Shown here piece by piece: positions 34,650-47,690 of a DNA stretch of 64,000 bases; position 1 is the stretch's first letter, and each line of letters begins with the position of its first letter. Location of the stretch: the NCBI GenBank assembly GCA_947361355.1, contig CANAIR010000002.1, positions 46,976-110,975 of the forward strand. The letters are read 5' to 3'. Source of the DNA: an uncultured Clostridium sp. (GTDB taxonomy: Bacteria > Bacillota > Clostridia > TANB77 > CAG-465). A program made the translations under genes and the position numbers. The notes under the pieces are model-generated. The model saw only the letters and a program-made list of their open reading frames with translations. It was not told the origin of the DNA and did no database searches.

Positions 34650-35162
34650 TTATTTACATTCAAGCACATCTCCGATTAAAGTAATTTCTTTTGGAACCAG
34701 CATTGGGATGTAAGGTCCAGACTGATAAAATGAGATTGACGACCCATTAGGATTATATTCTCCATTTTTTAATTTGGAAGCTGTAACATGCCATCCCCTT
34801 TTTCCATTTTGCTTTGAAAATTTTGTCTTTGTAACAATATATTCACCGCAAAATATCGACGTGTTAAACATTTCTTCTTTTAAACTTATATTTAAGCTTT
34901 TTAAGAAGCTGTTAATTTTTTCTTCGGATACACATAACCCATGTGCTAAAAAATCTTTTTTGATGTCATCTCGAAGTTCAATCATATCGGCTGTTTTAGT
35001 AACTGCAGATAAAGAAAAAACTTCGCCAACAGTTATTATCTCGTATGTTTTTCTGTTTGAATTTCTCAAGTTTTTGTACAAATATTTTGCAGGTATTTCT
35101 GTATAAACTTGCATTCCCTTCTCTATTTTAAAAATGTTTCCTCTTTGCAATAATTTTTTCAT
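34650..35162 (-). CDS. Hypothetical cytoplasmic protein (170 aa)
   Basis: ORF with a GGAAAGAGGAT RBS; no domain recognised. Confidence 0.5.
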   Translation of the reverse strand: MKKLLQRGNIFKIEKGMQVYTEIPAKYLYKNLRNSNRKTYEIITVGEVFSLSAVTKTADMIELRDDIKKDFLAHGLCVSEEKINSFLKSLNISLKEEMFNTSIFCGEYIVTKTKFSKQNGKRGWHVTASKLKNGEYNPNGSSISFYQSGPYIPMLVPKEITLIGDVLECK

Positions 35163-38490: not shown

Positions 38491-38523
38491 AGTTCTGCAA
38501 CATATTTTGTTGCAGAATTTTTA
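38491..38523 (+). terminator. Rho-independent terminator after hpf
   Basis: TTCTGCAACA…TGTTGCAGAA stem followed by a T-run. Confidence 0.65.
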
Positions 38524-38627
38524 TATAATAGTATATGTAAGAAAAATGTCAATTTAATTATGTAGAGTTGTTGACATTAAATTTTGTTTATGCTATAATT
38601 ATTTGTATATTGAAGTGAGGTTGAGTC

Positions 38628-39236
38628 ATGAAAATTAAGTCAAGAATAACAGAAATTGTAATTTTAATTTTAATAATTGTAATTGCATCAATAATTGCTA
38701 TTAATGTTAAGGATGCTCTTAATAAATCTGAACTTGAAAAGTTAAGTGAAGCAAGTGATATTGCTAAAACTTTAGATGAATCTATAAATGTTGAAAATGC
38801 TGAACAATTACCAGAAGAAGAAAAAATAAGCTTGGCTAAAGGTTCAATTGCTGTTATAGATATACCATCTGTTGGAATAAGAGGGCAAGTTGTTGAAGGA
38901 ACTTCTGATGCAGTATTAAAAAATTATATTGGAAAATTTATTGGTTCAGCTGATCCTGGACAAAGTGGTAATTTTTGTGTAGCTGCTCATAATAATATAT
39001 ATACAGAAATATTTAGAAATTTATATAAATTAGAAGTAAATAGTGAAGTAAGAGTTATTACTAAAGAAAAAGAGTATATATATTTAGTAAAATCAGTAAA
39101 TAAAATACAGCCTACACAAATTGAAGTTTTAAATGAAAATCCTAATTTACATGAAATAACTTTAATAACATGTGCAGATATGGCAAAAACTAGAATTGTT
39201 GTTAAAGGAGATTTAGTTTCAGAAAAAGAAATTTAG
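38628..39236 (+). CDS. Sortase (TLITC active site; class D/sporulation-associated-like) adjacent to its LPVTG substrate
   Basis: N-terminal TM, His in …CVAAHNN…, Cys in HEITLITCAD, Arg in TRIVVKG. A TTGACA-17-TATAAT promoter lies at 38572-38605. Confidence 0.85.
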   Translation: MKIKSRITEIVILILIIVIASIIAINVKDALNKSELEKLSEASDIAKTLDESINVENAEQLPEEEKISLAKGSIAVIDIPSVGIRGQVVEGTSDAVLKNYIGKFIGSADPGQSGNFCVAAHNNIYTEIFRNLYKLEVNSEVRVITKEKEYIYLVKSVNKIQPTQIEVLNENPNLHEITLITCADMAKTRIVVKGDLVSEKEI

Positions 39237-39386
39237 AAAATTGAATTTATGTAATCTTTTTTAAATAATATTGTGCAAAATAGCATAAAAAATGTTGACT
39301 TTCTTCATTTTTTATGCTATAATTGTATTATGGTTAGGAATTATGTAAATAATATATAATAAATGTAGAAAAATGGAGGAAAAGAA

Positions 39387-42300
39387 ATGAAAAAAATTAA
39401 TAATTTTAAACTAAAAATATGTATGCTTATTTTTGTATTAGTCCTTATGATAGTACAAGTAGGTCCTTTTTTAGTTTATGCAGATGAAAGTAGATTAACA
39501 TTTTCTTGGGTAAGTTTTGGCCTACCATGTACAAATGAATATTACAATGGTAATGGCTTAGCTTTTGCCAAAGCACGTGTTGGTCAACATGTTGGTTATT
39601 GTTTAGATTATGGAGTACCTTTACCAACAGGAACTGGTGGTACAGTACAATATTTAAGAAAGTTATCTCCAGTAACTACTGCAGTAATAAGATATGGTTA
39701 TCCTAATGTATCAGCAGCTTCACTTGGTGTTAATAGTGATGAAGAAGCTGAATTTGCAACACAAATAGCAGTTTGGGGAGTTGTAAACTCATCTAATTCT
39801 AAAGATTCATATAAAACTAGTTGTGTTTTAGATATGGATAACTTAAAACCTACATATGGTTATGAAGCTTATATGACTAGAGTAAAAGCCGCTGCAAGAA
39901 GACTTATGGAAAGAGCATGGGCTGATCCTTATTACTCTAATCCTAAATGTTATATTAATCCAGCTAATGCTAAAATGAATGTTGGTTCTGAATATATGTT
40001 AGCAGGACCATATGAAATAAAAGCAACTGGATTTGAAGTTTCAAGTATATCAGTTAGCTTATCTAATGCTCCAAGTTCAGCACAAATTACTGATGCTAAT
40101 GGTAATGCAATATCAAAAGTTAACAATGGAACTAATGTATATGTAAAATTACCAAAAACATTATCAGGTTCTGAACTTACATTAAATGTTACTGCTAGTG
40201 GTAGCACAGCAGTAGGTAAAGCTTATGGTACTGGTAATATGTCAGATGCTAAACAAGATTATGGTATAGTGACAACTGAACCAGTTCAATTAAGTGATTC
40301 TTGTAAAGTTAAATGGTCTTCTTTAACAGGTAATGTTAGAATTTATAAAGTAGATCAATATGGAACTAAAATTCCAGGTGTAAAATTTGATCTTAAAGAT
40401 ATGAATAATAATGTTGTTGCATCAGGTACAACAGATACAAATGGTATATTAGAATTCAAGAATTTAAAAGTTGGTAGATATAAATTAGTTGAAGTTTCAG
40501 TACCAAGTAATTATATAATGGCAAAAGATCCATTTGAATTTGAAGTTACTACTGGAACAACAAAAGAAATTACTTTCCAAAATAAAAAAGTAGCTCCTGG
40601 TAAAATTCAAATTACAAAAATAGATCAAAATAATAACACAATACCAGGTTGTACATTCGAATTAAAAGATGCAAATGGTAAGGTTATTTACACAGGAACT
40701 ACAGATAAAGATGGTATTTTATCTTTTGATAACTTAGAGCAAGGTAAATATTATTTACAAGAAGTATCTGCTCCAGAAGGTTATGAAATGAAAAAAGATG
40801 CTGTTGAAATTGATGTTCCAAATAATAAAATAGTTACACTAAAATTCCCAAATAGAAGGGTAAATGGTGGACTAAAAATAATTAAAGTTGATGAAAATCA
40901 AAAACCTCTTGAAGGTGTAAAATTTGAAATATTAGATGCAAACAAAAAAGTTATAGATACAATAACAACTAATAAAGATGGTATTGCTGTAACTACTGCA
41001 AAATTAACAGTTGGAACATATTATTACAGAGAAATTTCAGCACCAGATAATATTATAATTGATACAAATGAATATCAATTTAAAATCAATGGTTATGATG
41101 AAGTAGTTATAAAAAATATAGTAAATAAAATCAAAAAAGGTAGACTTACAATACACAAAGTTACTGAAGGTGACAACAAACCACTAGCAAATGTAACATT
41201 TGAAATATTAGATGCAAATAAAAATGTTGTAGATACAATTGTTACAGATGCAAATGGTAATGCAGTTACTAAAGAATTACCAGAAGGTAAATATTATTAT
41301 AGAGAAACTAAAGTACCAGAAGGAATAAAATTAGATACTACAGAACATGAATTTACAATGGGTTACCAAAGTATTACAAAAGAAGTAGTAAATGAGTATT
41401 CTAAAGGTAAATTAAAAATAATAAAAGTAGATGAAAATGATAAACCTCTTGAAGGTGTAACATTCCAAATACTAGATGAAAACAAAAATGTAGTTGATAC
41501 AATTGTTACTAACAAAGAAGGAATTGCTGTAAGTACTGCTGATTTAACAGTTGGTAAGTATTATTACAAAGAAATTTCAGCACCAAATAATATTATAATA
41601 GATACTAATGAATATGAATTCAAAATCTCTAAAGATAATGAAGTTGTAATTAAAAATATAGTAAATAAAATCAAAAAAGGTAGACTTACAATTCATAAAG
41701 TTTCAGAAGGAGATAAAAAACCAATAGCAAATGTAACATTCCAAATATTAGATGCAAACAAAAAAGTAGTTGATACAATTGTTACAGATGCAAATGGTAA
41801 TGCAGTTACTAAAGAATTACCAGAAGGTAAATACTATTATAAAGAAGTAAAAGTTCCTGCAGAATATAAATTAGATGAAACAGAGTATGAATTTACAATG
41901 GATTATCAAGATGTAACAAAAGAAGTAGTAAACAAATATGCTAATGGTAAACTTAAAATATTAAAAGTAGATGAAAATGATATTCCTCTTAAAGGTATAG
42001 AATTTGAAATCTATGATGAAAACAAAAACCTAGTAGATACAATTGTTACTAATGAAAAAGGTGAAGCAATTTCTAAAGATTTACCTTTAGGTAAATACTA
42101 TTATAAAGAAACAAAAGCACCTGAAAATGTTATAATTGATAATAATATGTATGAATTTAAAATTTCTAAAGACAATGAAGTTGTTATAAAAAATGTTATT
42201 AATAAACTTATAAAAGGTAAATTAAAAATAGTTAAAACAACTGAAACAGGAACTCCAGTTCCAAATGTAACTTTCCAAATTTTAAATGAAGCAAAAGAAG

Positions 42301-43160
42301 TAATTGAAACAATTACTACAGATAAAGATGGTATTGCTGAAACTAAACTTTTACAATCTGGAAAATATTACTATCGTGAAATAGAAGCACCTGTAAATGT
42401 TATTGCTGATCTTACAGAATATGAATTTATAGTTGCAACAAACGATGAAGTTATCGAAAAAGAAGTAATTAATAAATTAGTAAAAGGAAGCTTAAAAATA
42501 GTTAAAACAGACGATTTAAAAGCACCTCTTGCAAATGTTAAATTTGAAATACTTGATAAAGATAAAAAAGTAATACAAACAATTGTAACTGATGAGAAAG
42601 GTATAGCTATATCAGACAAATTAACAATAGGAAAATATTACTATCGTGAAGTAGAAGCACCTGAAAATGTTGTAATGGACACAAAAGAACATGAATTTAA
42701 AGTTACTGAAAATAATCAAGTTATCGAAAAAGAAATCGAAAACAAGAGAATTGAAGGAAAACTTATAATTTATAAAAAAGACAAAGATACAAAGAAACCA
42801 ATTGAGGGTGTAACATTCCAAGTACTAAATGAAGCAAAAGAAGTAATTGCTACAATTACTACAGATAAAGATGGTATTGCTAGACAAGGTGAATTACTAA
42901 AAGGAAAATACTATTTTAAAGAAATAGAAGCTCCAGAAGAGTATATCATGAATACAAAAGAGTTCTCTTTTGAAATCAAAAAAGATATGCAAACTGAAGA
43001 AGTAACTGTATTCAACGAGCACAAAAAATTACCAGTAACAGGTGGATTTATTGGAACTAATACTTTAATAGTTATTATAGTATCAGTAGTTGTAATAGCA
43101 GGTTATGTGGTAGTAAAACTAGTACTTAATAGAAAGAATGAAGGTCATGATAATAACTAA
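39387..43160 (+). CDS. LPVTG-anchored surface adhesin: signal peptide + thioester domain (TED) + ~10 tandem CnaB-type (isopeptide-fold) repeats
   Basis: TED motifs: Cys in VGYCLDYG and Gln in FATQIAVWG (TQxAIW). About 10 repeats of ~88 aa (GKLKIIKVDENDKPLEGVTFQILD…GKYYYKEISAP…) with a K/E/N triad pattern. C-terminal LPVTGG + hydrophobic segment + KLVLNRKNEGH tail. Confidence 0.85.
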   Translation: MKKINNFKLKICMLIFVLVLMIVQVGPFLVYADESRLTFSWVSFGLPCTNEYYNGNGLAFAKARVGQHVGYCLDYGVPLPTGTGGTVQYLRKLSPVTTAVIRYGYPNVSAASLGVNSDEEAEFATQIAVWGVVNSSNSKDSYKTSCVLDMDNLKPTYGYEAYMTRVKAAARRLMERAWADPYYSNPKCYINPANAKMNVGSEYMLAGPYEIKATGFEVSSISVSLSNAPSSAQITDANGNAISKVNNGTNVYVKLPKTLSGSELTLNVTASGSTAVGKAYGTGNMSDAKQDYGIVTTEPVQLSDSCKVKWSSLTGNVRIYKVDQYGTKIPGVKFDLKDMNNNVVASGTTDTNGILEFKNLKVGRYKLVEVSVPSNYIMAKDPFEFEVTTGTTKEITFQNKKVAPGKIQITKIDQNNNTIPGCTFELKDANGKVIYTGTTDKDGILSFDNLEQGKYYLQEVSAPEGYEMKKDAVEIDVPNNKIVTLKFPNRRVNGGLKIIKVDENQKPLEGVKFEILDANKKVIDTITTNKDGIAVTTAKLTVGTYYYREISAPDNIIIDTNEYQFKINGYDEVVIKNIVNKIKKGRLTIHKVTEGDNKPLANVTFEILDANKNVVDTIVTDANGNAVTKELPEGKYYYRETKVPEGIKLDTTEHEFTMGYQSITKEVVNEYSKGKLKIIKVDENDKPLEGVTFQILDENKNVVDTIVTNKEGIAVSTADLTVGKYYYKEISAPNNIIIDTNEYEFKISKDNEVVIKNIVNKIKKGRLTIHKVSEGDKKPIANVTFQILDANKKVVDTIVTDANGNAVTKELPEGKYYYKEVKVPAEYKLDETEYEFTMDYQDVTKEVVNKYANGKLKILKVDENDIPLKGIEFEIYDENKNLVDTIVTNEKGEAISKDLPLGKYYYKETKAPENVIIDNNMYEFKISKDNEVVIKNVINKLIKGKLKIVKTTETGTPVPNVTFQILNEAKEVIETITTDKDGIAETKLLQSGKYYYREIEAPVNVIADLTEYEFIVATNDEVIEKEVINKLVKGSLKIVKTDDLKAPLANVKFEILDKDKKVIQTIVTDEKGIAISDKLTIGKYYYREVEAPENVVMDTKEHEFKVTENNQVIEKEIENKRIEGKLIIYKKDKDTKKPIEGVTFQVLNEAKEVIATITTDKDGIARQGELLKGKYYFKEIEAPEEYIMNTKEFSFEIKKDMQTEEVTVFNEHKKLPVTGGFIGTNTLIVIIVSVVVIAGYVVVKLVLNRKNEGHDNN

Positions 43161-43182
43161 TATTGATTGTTATAATTTAAAA

Positions 43183-43217
43183 GAAGAATAGTTTAACTAT
43201 TCTTCTTTTTCAAGAAT
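43183..43217 (+). terminator. Rho-independent terminator after the adhesin gene
   Basis: AAGAAGAATAGTT…AACTATTCTTCTT stem followed by a T-run. Confidence 0.65.
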
Positions 43218-43272
43218 AAATGAGAAATATTAATATTTATAAAACTTGTTTTATTATAGGATTGTGATAAAA

Positions 43273-44319
43273 ATGGAATTATTAGATTTTAAGGAAAAAA
43301 TAGATTTAAAACAATTAGAAAAAGTGGCTAATTGTATAAAAAAAGGTAAGTTAGTTGTATTCCCAACTGAAACAGTTTATGGAATAGGTACCAATGCGTT
43401 TGATGAAATGGCAGTCTCAAATATTTTTAAAGCAAAGGGAAGACCTAGTGATAATCCTTTAATTGTACATATAGCAAATTTTAAAATGCTAGATGAATTA
43501 GTGACTAACGTAAATGAAGTAGAAAAAAAGTTAATGAAAGCATTTTGGCCTGGTCCTTTGACAATAATATTGCCCAAAAAAGACGTTTTACCGCAAAATG
43601 TAACATGTGGTCTTGACACTGTAGGAATTAGAATGCCTAATAATGATATAGCTTTAAAACTTATAAAAATGGCTAATGTGCCAATTGCTGCTCCAAGTGC
43701 AAATGTATCTGGAAAGCCTAGTGGAACAACAATTGAAGATATTTATTTAGAGTTAAAAGATAAAGTTGAATATATGATAGATTCTTCTATTACTAATATA
43801 GGAGTAGAATCAACAGTAGTAAAAATTATAGACAATGAAGTAGTAATTTTAAGACCTGGAAAAATTTCGCCTGATGATATAAAAAAAGTGGGTGTGAATG
43901 TAAAATTACATGATCATTTATTTAAAAATATTAATATAAATGATAGAGTTGAGTCTCCAGGAATGAAACATAGGCATTATGCGCCATCTACTAAAACAAT
44001 TTTGGTAGATGGTGTGGATAATGAAAAAACGTGTGATAAAATTTTTAAATTGTTAGATGAAAATAAAACAAAAAAAATAGCTTTATTAAGTTACGAAGAA
44101 AACAAAAAAGTATTTGATAATTTTGACATTGAATATTTAAGTCTTGGAAAAATGGGTGATTTAAATGTTATATCACAAAATATTTTCACAAACCTTAGAA
44201 AAGTTGATAAATTAAATGTAGATTTTTGTATTGTTCAAGGAGTAGAAAAAGAAGGTGTTGGTATTGCTATAATGAACCGATTAACAAGGGCTTGTGAATA
44301 TAATGTAATAAATGTGTAA
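43273..44319 (+). CDS. tsaC: L-threonylcarbamoyladenylate synthase (Sua5/YwlC; TsaC + Sua5 domains)
   Basis: TETVYGIGTNAF and KGRPSDNPLIVH motifs plus a C-terminal Sua5 domain. The ORF is open from 43246; the ATG at 43273 (MELLDF…) is the probable start. Confidence 0.85.
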   Translation: MELLDFKEKIDLKQLEKVANCIKKGKLVVFPTETVYGIGTNAFDEMAVSNIFKAKGRPSDNPLIVHIANFKMLDELVTNVNEVEKKLMKAFWPGPLTIILPKKDVLPQNVTCGLDTVGIRMPNNDIALKLIKMANVPIAAPSANVSGKPSGTTIEDIYLELKDKVEYMIDSSITNIGVESTVVKIIDNEVVILRPGKISPDDIKKVGVNVKLHDHLFKNININDRVESPGMKHRHYAPSTKTILVDGVDNEKTCDKIFKLLDENKTKKIALLSYEENKKVFDNFDIEYLSLGKMGDLNVISQNIFTNLRKVDKLNVDFCIVQGVEKEGVGIAIMNRLTRACEYNVINV

Positions 44320-45827: not shown

Positions 45828-46029
45828 TTTTTTAAAAGATAGAGTAAAGTTCTATCTTTTTTATTTTGTAGTTTTTAAATGTATATTTGTTTTTGGTAAA
45901 GCAAAAAAAATATAAAATATATTGTTTTTAAACTATATTTTATTTTTTTTATAAAAAATTATGTAAATTTTTTTAAAAAGTATTGCAAATAAATTATATA
46001 TATTTTATAATAGTATTGAGGTGATTTTT

Positions 46030-47442
46030 TTGAAGAGATATATCGATGAGGGAACAGGAAAAATTGTTAATATCTTAAATAATGATGAAGCAAATAAAGT
46101 TGTAAAAATTTTTATAGACTTTTTCTTTACAGAAACTACTATGCCAGAAGGTAGATTAAATTTAGTAGTATTACTTAGAGACTTTATAAAATTAACAGAA
46201 ATGGAAAATATTTATAAATTCATAGAATATATAGAAGAATACAAAAAAAGTTTAAAACTTTCTAAAGATGATGAAAAAGATTTTGATGTATTATATAGAT
46301 TTTTTAAAGCATATAAGGACTTTAGTGAACCAACTATCAATATTGAAGATGCTAAAAATTATATAAGTGATATGACTAATAAAGAAGAAGAACTTTCTAA
46401 AAAACCTAAAGATAGTTTAGATAAAACTGAAAAAATTCTTAATGTGCTTTTTGAAAATGGTTTTGTTCTATGTAGACTTGCAAAAATATCATGTGATACA
46501 TGGGAAAACAAAATTCAAAATCAAATAAAAAATGATAAGAAAGAAGCCATAATTTCAATAGAACAAGAAATAGCATATCAAGATTTATTAGAATTTGCTT
46601 CAAAAGAAAAAGTTGGAACTTCTAAAAAAATAAGTAGTAAAGATGTTAATACAAATAGTACAAATTCTACAAATGAAAATAAGGAAAAAGAAAAAGTAAA
46701 TGAATCTGAAATTAGTGCATCAAAAAATAGTAAAGTAAGTATTGATGTACAGGTTCCAGAAAAGAAAGAACCAATTAAAATAGAAGTAGAAACTAAAAAA
46801 GCAGAAATAAATGATAAAAAAGAAGAAAAAATTGAAAATGTTCCAAATAAAGAAGTAAAAACATCAACTATACAAATAAATCATGGATTTGATATAGGAA
46901 ATAACGTTACTCCTGAACCTCAAATAACAATTAATGCAAATAAACCTGAAAATATTCAAAAAGAAAAAGTATCAGAAAAAAAAGAAGATAAGGGACCAGA
47001 AATTCAAATCAATCGTGGTATTCAAATAGAAGATGATGTTCCACAAAGGCCATCAAAGCCTCAAATGCAAGATAAGGCAGAAAATATTTCTAAAATAGAT
47101 AACTCGCAAAATAAGGTTGAAAAAGAACCTACAATACAAATAAATCGTGGAATACAAATTGATGATGTTCCACAAAAACCAAAGCCAAGTGCAAATGATC
47201 AAAAACCACAAGTAGATAATAACTTAGAAAAAAATAAAAAAGATGAAGGGTATATTTCAAATATACATATATATGTACCTGGAGTTGATGATGAAGAAAA
47301 AGAACCTAAAAACGTAAGTCCTTTAGAAATTAAAAATGCTACTGAGGATGTGAATCTTAAAGATTCTGTTGAATTTTTCTCTAGTGTATTAGATAGTAGA
47401 AGATCAAATGACGATGATGAAGAAGATAGTTTTAGAGATTAA
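46030..47442 (+). CDS. Hypothetical protein with a low-complexity Lys/Glu-rich region and three IQIN(R/H)G(I/F)(Q/D)I…VP repeats; inserted between map and infA
   Basis: GAGGTGA RBS then TTG at 46030 (ORF open from 46021). Three repeats of TIQINRGIQI(E)DDVPQ(R/K)P. Acidic C-terminus. Confidence 0.5.
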   Translation: MKRYIDEGTGKIVNILNNDEANKVVKIFIDFFFTETTMPEGRLNLVVLLRDFIKLTEMENIYKFIEYIEEYKKSLKLSKDDEKDFDVLYRFFKAYKDFSEPTINIEDAKNYISDMTNKEEELSKKPKDSLDKTEKILNVLFENGFVLCRLAKISCDTWENKIQNQIKNDKKEAIISIEQEIAYQDLLEFASKEKVGTSKKISSKDVNTNSTNSTNENKEKEKVNESEISASKNSKVSIDVQVPEKKEPIKIEVETKKAEINDKKEEKIENVPNKEVKTSTIQINHGFDIGNNVTPEPQITINANKPENIQKEKVSEKKEDKGPEIQINRGIQIEDDVPQRPSKPQMQDKAENISKIDNSQNKVEKEPTIQINRGIQIDDVPQKPKPSANDQKPQVDNNLEKNKKDEGYISNIHIYVPGVDDEEKEPKNVSPLEIKNATEDVNLKDSVEFFSSVLDSRRSNDDDEEDSFRD

Positions 47443-47444
47443 AT

Positions 47445-47690
47445 ATGCAAAATGATGATTATACATATTCAATAACACAAACAAATTATATCATTAATTC
47501 TCTGTCAACAGATGTAAAAGAAAAAATACCACAAGGTGTTGTTAATTTCTTTGATTATAATTCTGATATGACATTGATAAGTGATGAAAATGATAAAAAA
47601 AATATGTTTGATAATTTTACAGAAGATACATTAAAATTTCTAAAGGTAATAGATTATTATATTAATAATAATTCTAATTTTAAAATGTAG
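47445..47690 (+). CDS. Small hypothetical ORF (81 aa) immediately downstream of the repeat protein
   Basis: Starts 2 nt after the upstream stop; weak RBS; no similarity recognised. Confidence 0.3.
   Translation: MQNDDYTYSITQTNYIINSLSTDVKEKIPQGVVNFFDYNSDMTLISDENDKKNMFDNFTEDTLKFLKVIDYYINNNSNFKM

Follow-up and report, generated by a model that had tools for sequence, protein, structure and literature searches.

A sortase-anchored adhesin with a predicted Class II thioester domain and a ten-domain isopeptide stalk in an uncultured member of the Clostridia

Introduction

What kind of surface protein is displayed through a sortase-adhesin gene pair in the genome of an uncultured, low-GC member of the Clostridia, and through which residues would it hold on to its target? 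The pair lies in a stretch of 64,000 nt (the window) of contig CANAIR010000002.1, assembly GCA_947361355.1. It consists of two open reading frames (ORFs) on the + strand, 38628-39236, encoding a sortase of 202 amino acids (aa), and 39387-43160, encoding an adhesin of 1257 aa. An earlier interpretation made from the letters and their translations (the sequence-only reading) had proposed both genes and described the larger product as a TIE-type covalent adhesin. Both genes are real at these coordinates, and the TIE-type assignment is upheld by sequence, predicted fold and synteny. The Pfam matches to Sortase, TED and SpaA exceed chance expectation by a wide margin.

The locus is a two-gene surface-display unit. 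Since sequence, predicted fold and conserved synteny agree, the adhesin is a further member of a known Gram-positive family of surface adhesins, TIE-type with a Class II thioester domain (TED) as its head, followed by a stalk of isopeptide domains and an LPXTG anchor, with an adjoining sortase. Every testable defining feature of a Class II TED TIE protein was found in it. As a whole, the locus very probably encodes a sortase-anchored Class II thioester adhesin with a Cys72-Gln290 head, a ten-domain isopeptide stalk and monomeric display. This draws on domain composition, fold, residue conservation and co-variation, gene pairing and synteny, from which we infer bond formation and sortase specificity. 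The observations of the sequence-only reading thus hold in part and its interpretation is supported in part; its choice of thioester glutamine and the near-identity of its stalk repeats did not stand. The features of the two genes are as follows.

38628-39236, + strand: sortase, 202 aa (Pfam Sortase, 94.4 bits), with His121 (AAHNN), Cys182 (TLITC) and Arg189 (KTRIV)
39387-39482, + strand: predicted Sec signal peptide, aa 1-32 (MKKINNFKLK, hydrophobic core, VYA/DE), read from the translation
39483-40328, + strand: predicted Class II TED, aa 33-314 (Pfam TED, phmmer against the PDB, AlphaFold2 model, Foldseek)
40329-43028, + strand: stalk of CnaB-type isopeptide domains R1-R10, aa 315-1214 (Pfam PF17802 SpaA, 10 stretches, 619 bits)
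40863-41702, + strand: most recent internal duplication, R3R4 versus R5R6, 540 bp apart, 83-86% DNA identity
43029-43160, + strand: cell-wall sorting signal, comprising LPVTG (aa 1215-1219), the hydrophobic segment GFIGTNTLIVIIVSVVVIAGYVVV, the charged tail KLVLNRKNEGHDNN and the stop codon

The head of the adhesin is a predicted Class II thioester domain

The N-terminus of the adhesin is conserved in its homologs, and the probable signal-peptide cleavage site (VYA/DE) was read from the translation rather than computed. When the N-terminal 338 aa were compared with the PDB using phmmer, the two real matches were 6FWV (BaTIE, 2e-10) and 6FWY (the TED of EfmTIE86, 2e-9), the two structures on which Class II of the thioester domains was founded (PMC6194298). 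Pfam also recognised the domain (PF08341 TED, 40.4 bits against a cutoff of 22). An AlphaFold2 model of aa 31-320, made with 34 homologs, was of high confidence (predicted local distance difference test, pLDDT, 92.9; predicted template modelling score, pTM, 0.86) and showed the TED fold, with a head lobe, a helical region, an all-beta block (model residues 157-251) and a long terminal hairpin. Foldseek aligned this model with 6FWV at a template modelling (TM) score of 0.75-0.76 over 278-281 columns and with 6FWY at 0.65-0.67 (E ~2e-16 for each; 278-291 columns for the two structures together). In contrast, the Class I TEDs of Cpa and SfbI gave a partial match with TM-scores of 0.30-0.32.

Class II TEDs carry a seven-stranded beta-sandwich of ~75 residues between alpha3 and the Gln-bearing hairpin, lack the Class I N-terminal indel, and form a slipknot in which the Q/P hairpin is threaded through the N-terminal lobe (Miller et al. 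2018, PMC6194298). The beta-sandwich insert of the present domain spans ~aa 187-281. Because the closest solved sequences are 6FWV and 6FWY, the insert is all-beta and the TM-scores are 0.65-0.76 compared to ~0.3 for Class I, the modelled domain is assigned to Class II. The slipknot threading is suggested by the high TM-score to 6FWV only. The sequence-only reading had therefore identified the family correctly, but the Class II fold with its beta-sandwich insert had gone unrecognised.

Cys72 and Gln290 are predicted to form the thioester

TED bonds join the Cys of a [YFL]CΦζ motif to a distal Gln, which lies in a weak ΦQζΦΦ motif; the solved pairs are Cys71-Gln266 in BaTIE, Cys88-Gln292 in EfmTIE86 and Cys296-Gln467 in SaTIE. 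In the TQxxΦW motif, Gln and Trp are located next to the bond, but its formation does not require them (PMC6194298). The adhesin has VGYCLDYG at aa 69 and FATQIAVWG at aa 123, in the order given by the sequence-only reading, which took Cys72 and Gln126 from these motifs as the bonding pair. The codons of the three residues in question are 39600-39602 for Cys72 (YCLD), 39762-39764 for Gln126 (TQIAVW) and 40254-40256 for Gln290 (AKQDY). Cys72, at the end of model strand 38-42 (aa 68-72), aligns with BaTIE Cys71 and EfmTIE86 Cys88, and TQIAVW (aa 125-130) lies inside model helix 88-103 (aa 118-133). In the phmmer alignment to 6FWV, it is Gln290 (DAKQDY) that aligns with BaTIE Gln266. Gln290 is preceded by Lys and not by a hydrophobic residue, so that the weak ΦQζΦΦ motif is matched in part.

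Conservation was examined in homologs obtained by an exhaustive phmmer search of 1.84 billion representatives with the TED, which gave 158 matches; a word-indexed search gave 3 proteins only. The query and 61 domain-spanning homologs were aligned with MAFFT. Among these 62 sequences, Cys72 is present in 48, Gln290 in 56 and Gln126 in 55. Gln290 accompanies the Cys in all 48 Cys-bearing sequences and is lost only where the Cys is lost as well. By contrast, seven homologs carry A, K, G or E at the position of Gln126 although their Cys72 and Gln290 are both intact. In a trimmed alignment of 14 sequences (A2), the invariant columns include Cys72, Gln290, T125, Q126, A128 and W130. Given the alignment with BaTIE Gln266, the 48/48 co-occurrence and the seven replacements of Gln126, the thioester is predicted to join Cys72 to Gln290, and the Cys72-Gln126 assignment is rejected.

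The thioester Cys is exchanged for Ser (YS[LIM]DY) in 10 of the 61 homologs, of which seven retain the distal Gln. These seven (P0001, P0013, P0014, P0021, P0039, P0048 and P0085) are complete proteins of 366-590 aa that lack LPXTG; they have one to three SpaA domains and a membrane anchor at the N-terminus. The substitution C68S inactivates TIEpLS20 (PMC8092201), and by analogy the Ser variants may therefore be either non-covalent pseudo-TEDs or formers of a Ser-Gln ester. P0001 is the closest TED homolog (57% identity). Its gene lies on a Logan contig (SRR23924962_2045854; L003, 1-8113), where the neighbours encode a further TED protein, two small proteins with a TIR_2 domain, an RyR-domain protein and a metallophosphatase, which is an unusual neighbourhood for an adhesin.

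The stalk comprises ten divergent domains, each with a predicted isopeptide bond

The sequence-only reading had counted ~10 repeats of ~88 aa, and there are exactly ten, of 89-91 aa each, between aa 315 and 1214. The matching Pfam model is PF17802 (SpaA, prealbumin-like) and not Cna_B, the family that had been expected, but the fold is CnaB-type. The repeats had also been called near-identical, which is not the case: pairwise identity is 28-80% for protein and 50-84% for DNA. Tandem Repeats Finder reported 0 arrays in 39300-43300 because the repeats are too divergent; their boundaries were set with motifs and a MAFFT alignment. Protein identity is highest for R3/R5 (79%) and R4/R6 (80%), and adjacent domains share just 35-54%. 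The DNA repeats behind R3R4/R5R6 (D5, 300 nt at 84%; D1 and D4, 85-86%) have a spacing of 540 bp, showing that a two-domain unit was duplicated.

A periscope protein, with a length-variable stalk of near-identical repeats, was considered and rejected on the DNA identity of 50-84%, the lack of a Tandem Repeats Finder array and the length of 1257 aa in both assemblies; an identical protein is encoded on two ENA metagenome contigs, which are independent assemblies of the same species. The number of stalk domains nevertheless varies between species (7, 10 and 12).

The Lys (GxLxIxK), the Glu (YYxxE..P) and a near-C-terminal Asn are invariant in 10/10 repeats and belong to a total of 12 invariant columns. 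Two consecutive repeats matched the isopeptide domains of BaTIE at 1.5e-19, with the three residues falling on BaTIE Lys297, Glu343 and Asn373; BaTIE K384 is aligned too. Lys297-Asn373 is an isopeptide pair seen crystallographically, and Glu343 is catalytic (PMC6194298). The K/E/N pattern noted by the sequence-only reading is thus invariant and in register with a known triad. A model of R5 (pLDDT 96.5) superimposed on the BaTIE isopeptide domains with TM-scores of 0.84-0.88 and a root mean square deviation of 1.6-1.8 Å, on L. plantarum CnaB2 (8BDW) at 0.85-0.88 and on FbaB CnaB2 (2X5P) at 0.69, and it superimposed on BcpA too. From the invariant triad in the BaTIE register and the modelled CnaB fold, ten Lys-Asn isopeptide bonds are predicted, one per domain, each with the Glu as the likely catalytic residue, shown here in brackets.

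R1 to R5, predicted: K321-N399 (E369), K411-N489 (E459), K500-N580 (E549), K591-N669 (E640), K680-N760 (E729)
R6 to R10, predicted: K771-N849 (E820), K860-N939 (E908), K950-N1029 (E998), K1040-N1119 (E1088), K1130-N1210 (E1179)

The adhesin ends in a sorting signal and adjoins a sortase gene

The LPVTGG sorting signal of the sequence-only reading is present, and the tripartite signal is complete: LPVTGG is followed by 24 hydrophobic residues and a KLVLNRK... tail. No other ORF in the window has a sorting signal. The sortase proposed just upstream is likewise confirmed, by its Pfam score and by the TLITC motif at aa 178. A single membrane anchor lies at its N-terminus (aa ~6-31). Among solved structures it is closest to SrtD of C. 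perfringens (CpSrtD, 4D70; E 1.9e-25, 36% identity), with His121, Cys182 and Arg189 aligned with CpSrtD His109, Cys171 and Arg178. The CpSrtD gene shares its operon with the gene for a wall-anchor protein of LPXTG type (PMC4498605); that paper makes no statement on whether this neighbour is a TIE protein. The generic model TIGR01076 was the only NCBIfam sortase model passed. The pairing suggests that the sortase may be specific for the LPVTGG adhesin.

The gene pair is conserved in two further species

A genome scan with the single protein found no locus in relatives, and a scan with a 4-sequence alignment found two, in a Clostridia metagenome-assembled genome (L004) and in Clostridium sp. CAG:921 (L005), which we take to be a human-gut metagenome species. 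The arrangement hpf-sortase-TED adhesin-(sua5)-adk recurs in both. The orthologous adhesins are encoded at 5884-8868 of L004 (7 SpaA stretches, LPVTGG) and at 5911-10239 of L005 (12 stretches, LPQTGG). Both keep the YCLD, TQxAVW and GTG...QD[YF] motifs, and KKLP[VQ]TGGF is conserved at the anchor. In the L004 protein, the thioester Cys is the sole cysteine in 994 residues. In L005, sua5 is missing from the interval between the adhesin gene and adk.

Identity between the window and L004/L005 is 79% for PolC, 74-79% for HPF, 66-74% for Adk, 57-61% for the sortase, 48-52% for the stalk and 46-47% for the TED. The adhesin is the fastest-evolving gene in the block; fast evolution is usual for surface proteins. 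In the window, the sortase-adhesin pair sits inside a conserved housekeeping block (polC...hpf / sua5-adk-map...rpsM-rpoA), and a scan of ten flanking products gave 0 matches to mobile-element or conjugation families.

These results can be joined with the Ser variants into a wider evolutionary proposal, which we regard as improbable in its entirety. The sortase-TED pair would belong to the core genome of an uncultured low-GC Clostridia lineage, passed on vertically and fixed at its place between hpf and sua5/adk in three species or more. It would encode a covalent adhesin with a head that evolves faster than any of the genes around it and may bind a class of ligand new to TEDs. A sister sub-lineage would have replaced the Cys by Ser and given up sortase anchoring in favour of a membrane anchor at the N-terminus, possibly with a Ser-Gln oxoester or as a non-covalent 'pseudo-TED'.

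Proposed mechanism

In the mechanism that we propose, the adhesin would be exported through Sec. An internal thioester would form spontaneously between Cys72, which lies on a head-lobe beta-strand, and Gln290, which the long hairpin returning from the beta-sandwich insert carries at its tip; Gln126 and Trp130 of the TQIAVW helix would flank the bond. A nucleophile of the target would then attack the thioester, leaving the adhesin covalently attached; in known TEDs the nucleophile is typically a Lys amine (for TED chemistry see PMC4450167 and PMC6194298). Each CnaB-type domain would lock itself by a Lys-Asn isopeptide bond under catalysis by the conserved Glu, and the ten domains would make a long stalk that resists protease and force and keeps the reactive head off the wall. 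The membrane-anchored sortase would cut between Thr and Gly of LPVTG and join the Thr to peptidoglycan, displaying the adhesin as a monomer. Covalent binding to a host is an assumption. A host target is plausible because one of the related genomes is titled Clostridium sp. CAG:921, presumably a human-gut species.

Alternative readings

Several results weigh against the proposal of a sortase-anchored Class II adhesin with a Cys72-Gln290 head. While Pfam recognised the TED, the NCBIfam model TIGR03934 (TQXA_dom) scored 28.9 bits, slightly under its cutoff of 30.4. In the 6FWY alignment, which is ambiguous here, EfmTIE86 Gln292 falls three residues off Gln290 and beside a gap; the evidence for the Gln290 pairing is therefore the 6FWV alignment together with conservation. 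The sortase stayed below all class-specific NCBIfam cutoffs: the class E model gave 91 bits (cutoff 160), the class C model 63.7 (cutoff 160), SrtD 63.1 (cutoff 140) and class D 49.5 (cutoff 165). 'CpSrtD-like' therefore denotes the closest solved sequence here and not a class. CpSrtD prefers LPQTGS (PMC4498605), compared to the LPVTGG of the adhesin. The 64-kb window is compatible both with a sortase dedicated to the adhesin and with a general sortase of the organism. As for the head, the Cys72-Gln126 thioester is scarcely credible. Both motifs are conserved, Gln126 is frequent in the 62-sequence alignment (55/62) and T125, Q126 and W130 are invariant in A2, but in every solved TED the partner is the distal Gln and TQxxΦW only adjoins the bond (PMC6194298). 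The alignment of Gln290 with BaTIE Gln266 and the seven homologs that have Cys72 and Gln290 with A, K, G or E at position 126 speak against it as well. It is also quite improbable that the TED is a non-reactive relic, without a thioester, that binds non-covalently or merely caps the stalk. Such a state has precedents, since ~16% of homologs have Ser, Gly or Met instead of Cys72 and the fold thus persists without the thioester. However, the adhesin and both syntenic orthologues keep Cys72, Gln290 and TQxAVW, the reactive Cys of the L004 protein is its only cysteine, and the reactive residues stayed fixed while the TED diverged to 46-47% identity.

The manner of display and the target each admit another reading. 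The adhesin could be a pilus component, either a tip adhesin or a shaft pilin, polymerised by a class C sortase. The NCBIfam model 'SpaH/EbpB family LPXTG-anchored major pilin' was passed (111 bits, cutoff 95), CnaB domains are typical of pilins, pilins make up many of the structural matches to the repeat, and the earliest TED protein to be described, Cpa, acts as an adhesin at the pilus tip (PMC6194298). The SpaH/EbpB score, however, derives from six separate CnaB-like stretches with no full-length pilin match. The pilin motif [WYFIL]PK[NDH] occurs nowhere in the adhesin, and the class C lid motif DP[WYF] is absent from the sortase, which has a single N-terminal transmembrane segment and the class D enzyme CpSrtD as its closest solved relative. 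In all three species the locus encodes a single sortase and a single substrate, and genes for a shaft or basal pilin are absent from it. We consider a pilus very improbable, and the lack of a pilin motif and of further pilin genes argues for monomeric wall anchoring. The target is the point at which an alternative has most weight: with the same architecture, the adhesin might instead attach to other bacterial cells or to a polymer from the environment or the diet, and serve in aggregation or cell-cell adhesion as TIEpLS20 does. The sole Class II TED with a demonstrated cellular role, TIEpLS20, acts from bacterium to bacterium in mating-pair formation (PMC8092201), the collagen binding proposed for BaTIE was unsupported by enzyme-linked immunosorbent assay (PMC6194298), and nothing in the sequence specifies a host ligand. 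Against this, the locus has no conjugation or mobile-element genes nearby and lies in a conserved housekeeping block, and it encodes a canonical sorting signal, unlike TIEpLS20. The related Clostridium sp. CAG:921, a name that stands for a human-gut metagenome species, also points the other way. A non-host target is possible but on balance rather unlikely. A conjugation adhesin was considered separately and rejected, as there are no mobile-element genes and housekeeping synteny is conserved.

Comparison with known systems

BaTIE (BasC/BA5258 of Bacillus anthracis, 6FWV; PMC6194298) has the same order of signal peptide, Class II TED, CnaB-type domains and LPXTG. Its Cys, TQxxΦW and distal Gln align with those of the adhesin and its isopeptide K/E/N are in register, although the two TEDs share only ~19% identity. 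BaTIE has three stalk domains compared to ten here, and a disordered linker of 38 residues before its LPATG, whereas LPVTGG directly follows the last domain of the adhesin. One BaTIE bond is Lys-Asp, whereas all ten bonds predicted here are Lys-Asn. The closest likeness in motifs (NIGYCMD / YATQLVSW / YQD) is to EfmTIE86 from vancomycin-resistant Enterococcus faecium (6FWY; 21% identity), a sortase-anchored protein with a Class II TED and a shorter stalk, for which five CnaB isopeptide domains are predicted. TIEpLS20 (p34 of Bacillus subtilis plasmid pLS20; PMC8092201) also has a Class II TED (Cys68-Gln256 predicted) and a CnaB stalk. It does not function without its Cys, and its bonding Gln was likewise assigned by modelling and conservation (PMC8092201). 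In contrast to the adhesin, which is chromosomal, lies among housekeeping genes and has a sorting signal and a sortase, TIEpLS20 is plasmid-borne in a conjugation operon, lacks LPXTG and is sortase-independent.

The Class I TEDs (SfbI, Cpa and FbaB of S. pyogenes; CpTIE of C. perfringens; Walden et al. 2015, PMC4450167) share the Cys-Gln thioester chemistry, the head-lobe fold and TQxxΦW but lack the ~75-residue beta-sandwich insert and the slipknot; SfbI binds a Lys of fibrinogen (PMC4450167). CpSrtD (4D70; PMC4498605) resembles the sortase in its N-terminal anchor and its adjoining gene for an LPXTG-type wall protein; it prefers LPQTGS, whereas the adhesin here has LPVTGG and its L005 counterpart LPQTGG.

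A search of the literature for more recent studies of Class II TEDs from gut Clostridia gave nothing relevant. The locus adds a well-supported Class II TED adhesin from an uncultured gut-type lineage of Clostridia in which no such protein has been studied, together with a precise bond prediction (Cys72-Gln290 and ten Lys-Asn isopeptides). The current understanding of TIE proteins is unchanged, and the chief practical value lies in the corrected residue assignment. The conserved sortase pairing is also useful: the CpSrtD-like sortase and the LP[VQ]TGG signal would be a natural enzyme-substrate pair for a poorly classified group of sortases. The divergent, self-crosslinking CnaB modules and the TED could serve as protein-ligation parts.

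Transcription signals and neighbouring genes

The following candidate transcription signals, assigned from matches to consensus or from hairpins, were found around the two genes.

38491-38519, + strand: terminator-like hairpin (12-bp stem, 5-nt loop, T-run) closing hpf, the ribosome hibernation factor gene
38571-38599, + strand: promoter-like element TTGACA-N17-(TG)cTATAAT 5' of the sortase gene, a consensus match only (12/12, with the extended -10 TG)
39295-39323, + strand: second promoter-like element TTGACT-N17-(TG)cTATAAT 5' of the adhesin gene, a consensus match only (11/12, TG present)
43181-43210, + strand: AT-rich hairpin (AAGAAGAATAG-TTTAA-CTATTCTTCTT) followed by a T-run, read from the sequence

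The hairpin after hpf separates that gene from the sortase-adhesin unit, and a GGAGG ribosome-binding site follows the adhesin element. Upstream of the sortase gene, L005 has a similar element and L004 a near-match; equivalents of the adhesin element are present upstream of the adhesin gene in both. The two elements have a near-identical -10 region (TATGCTATAATT) within one locus, which suggests that the sortase and adhesin genes are transcribed separately but under similar control, and not as one operon. The hairpin at 43181-43210, which a G+C-based terminator scan missed, is probably the terminator of the adhesin transcript; the L004 orthologue is likewise trailed by a GAAGAATAG...CTATTCTTC hairpin. 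Ribosomal-protein operons frequently carry r-protein leaders. An Rfam scan of the whole window at gathering thresholds gave 0 RNA families despite the ribosomal-protein operons, and thus no known riboswitch or leader near the locus.

The 5' flank consists of polC, a small unassigned ORF, an ABC-2 transporter gene and hpf, in this order up to the sortase gene, and the 3' flank of sua5, adk, map, two unassigned ORFs, infA, rpmJ, rpsM, rpsK, rpsD, rpoA and rplQ. The small ORF between polC and the transporter gene (34650-35162, - strand, 170 aa) has no Pfam match and was gene-called on metagenome contig L001 too. Between map and infA, an ORF at 46021-47442 (+ strand) is directly followed by one of 81 aa without a match (47445-47690, + strand). 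The former encodes a Lys/Glu-rich protein of 473 aa without a Pfam match, which contains three copies of the repeat '...IQINRGIQI(E/D)DDVPQ(R/K)P...'.

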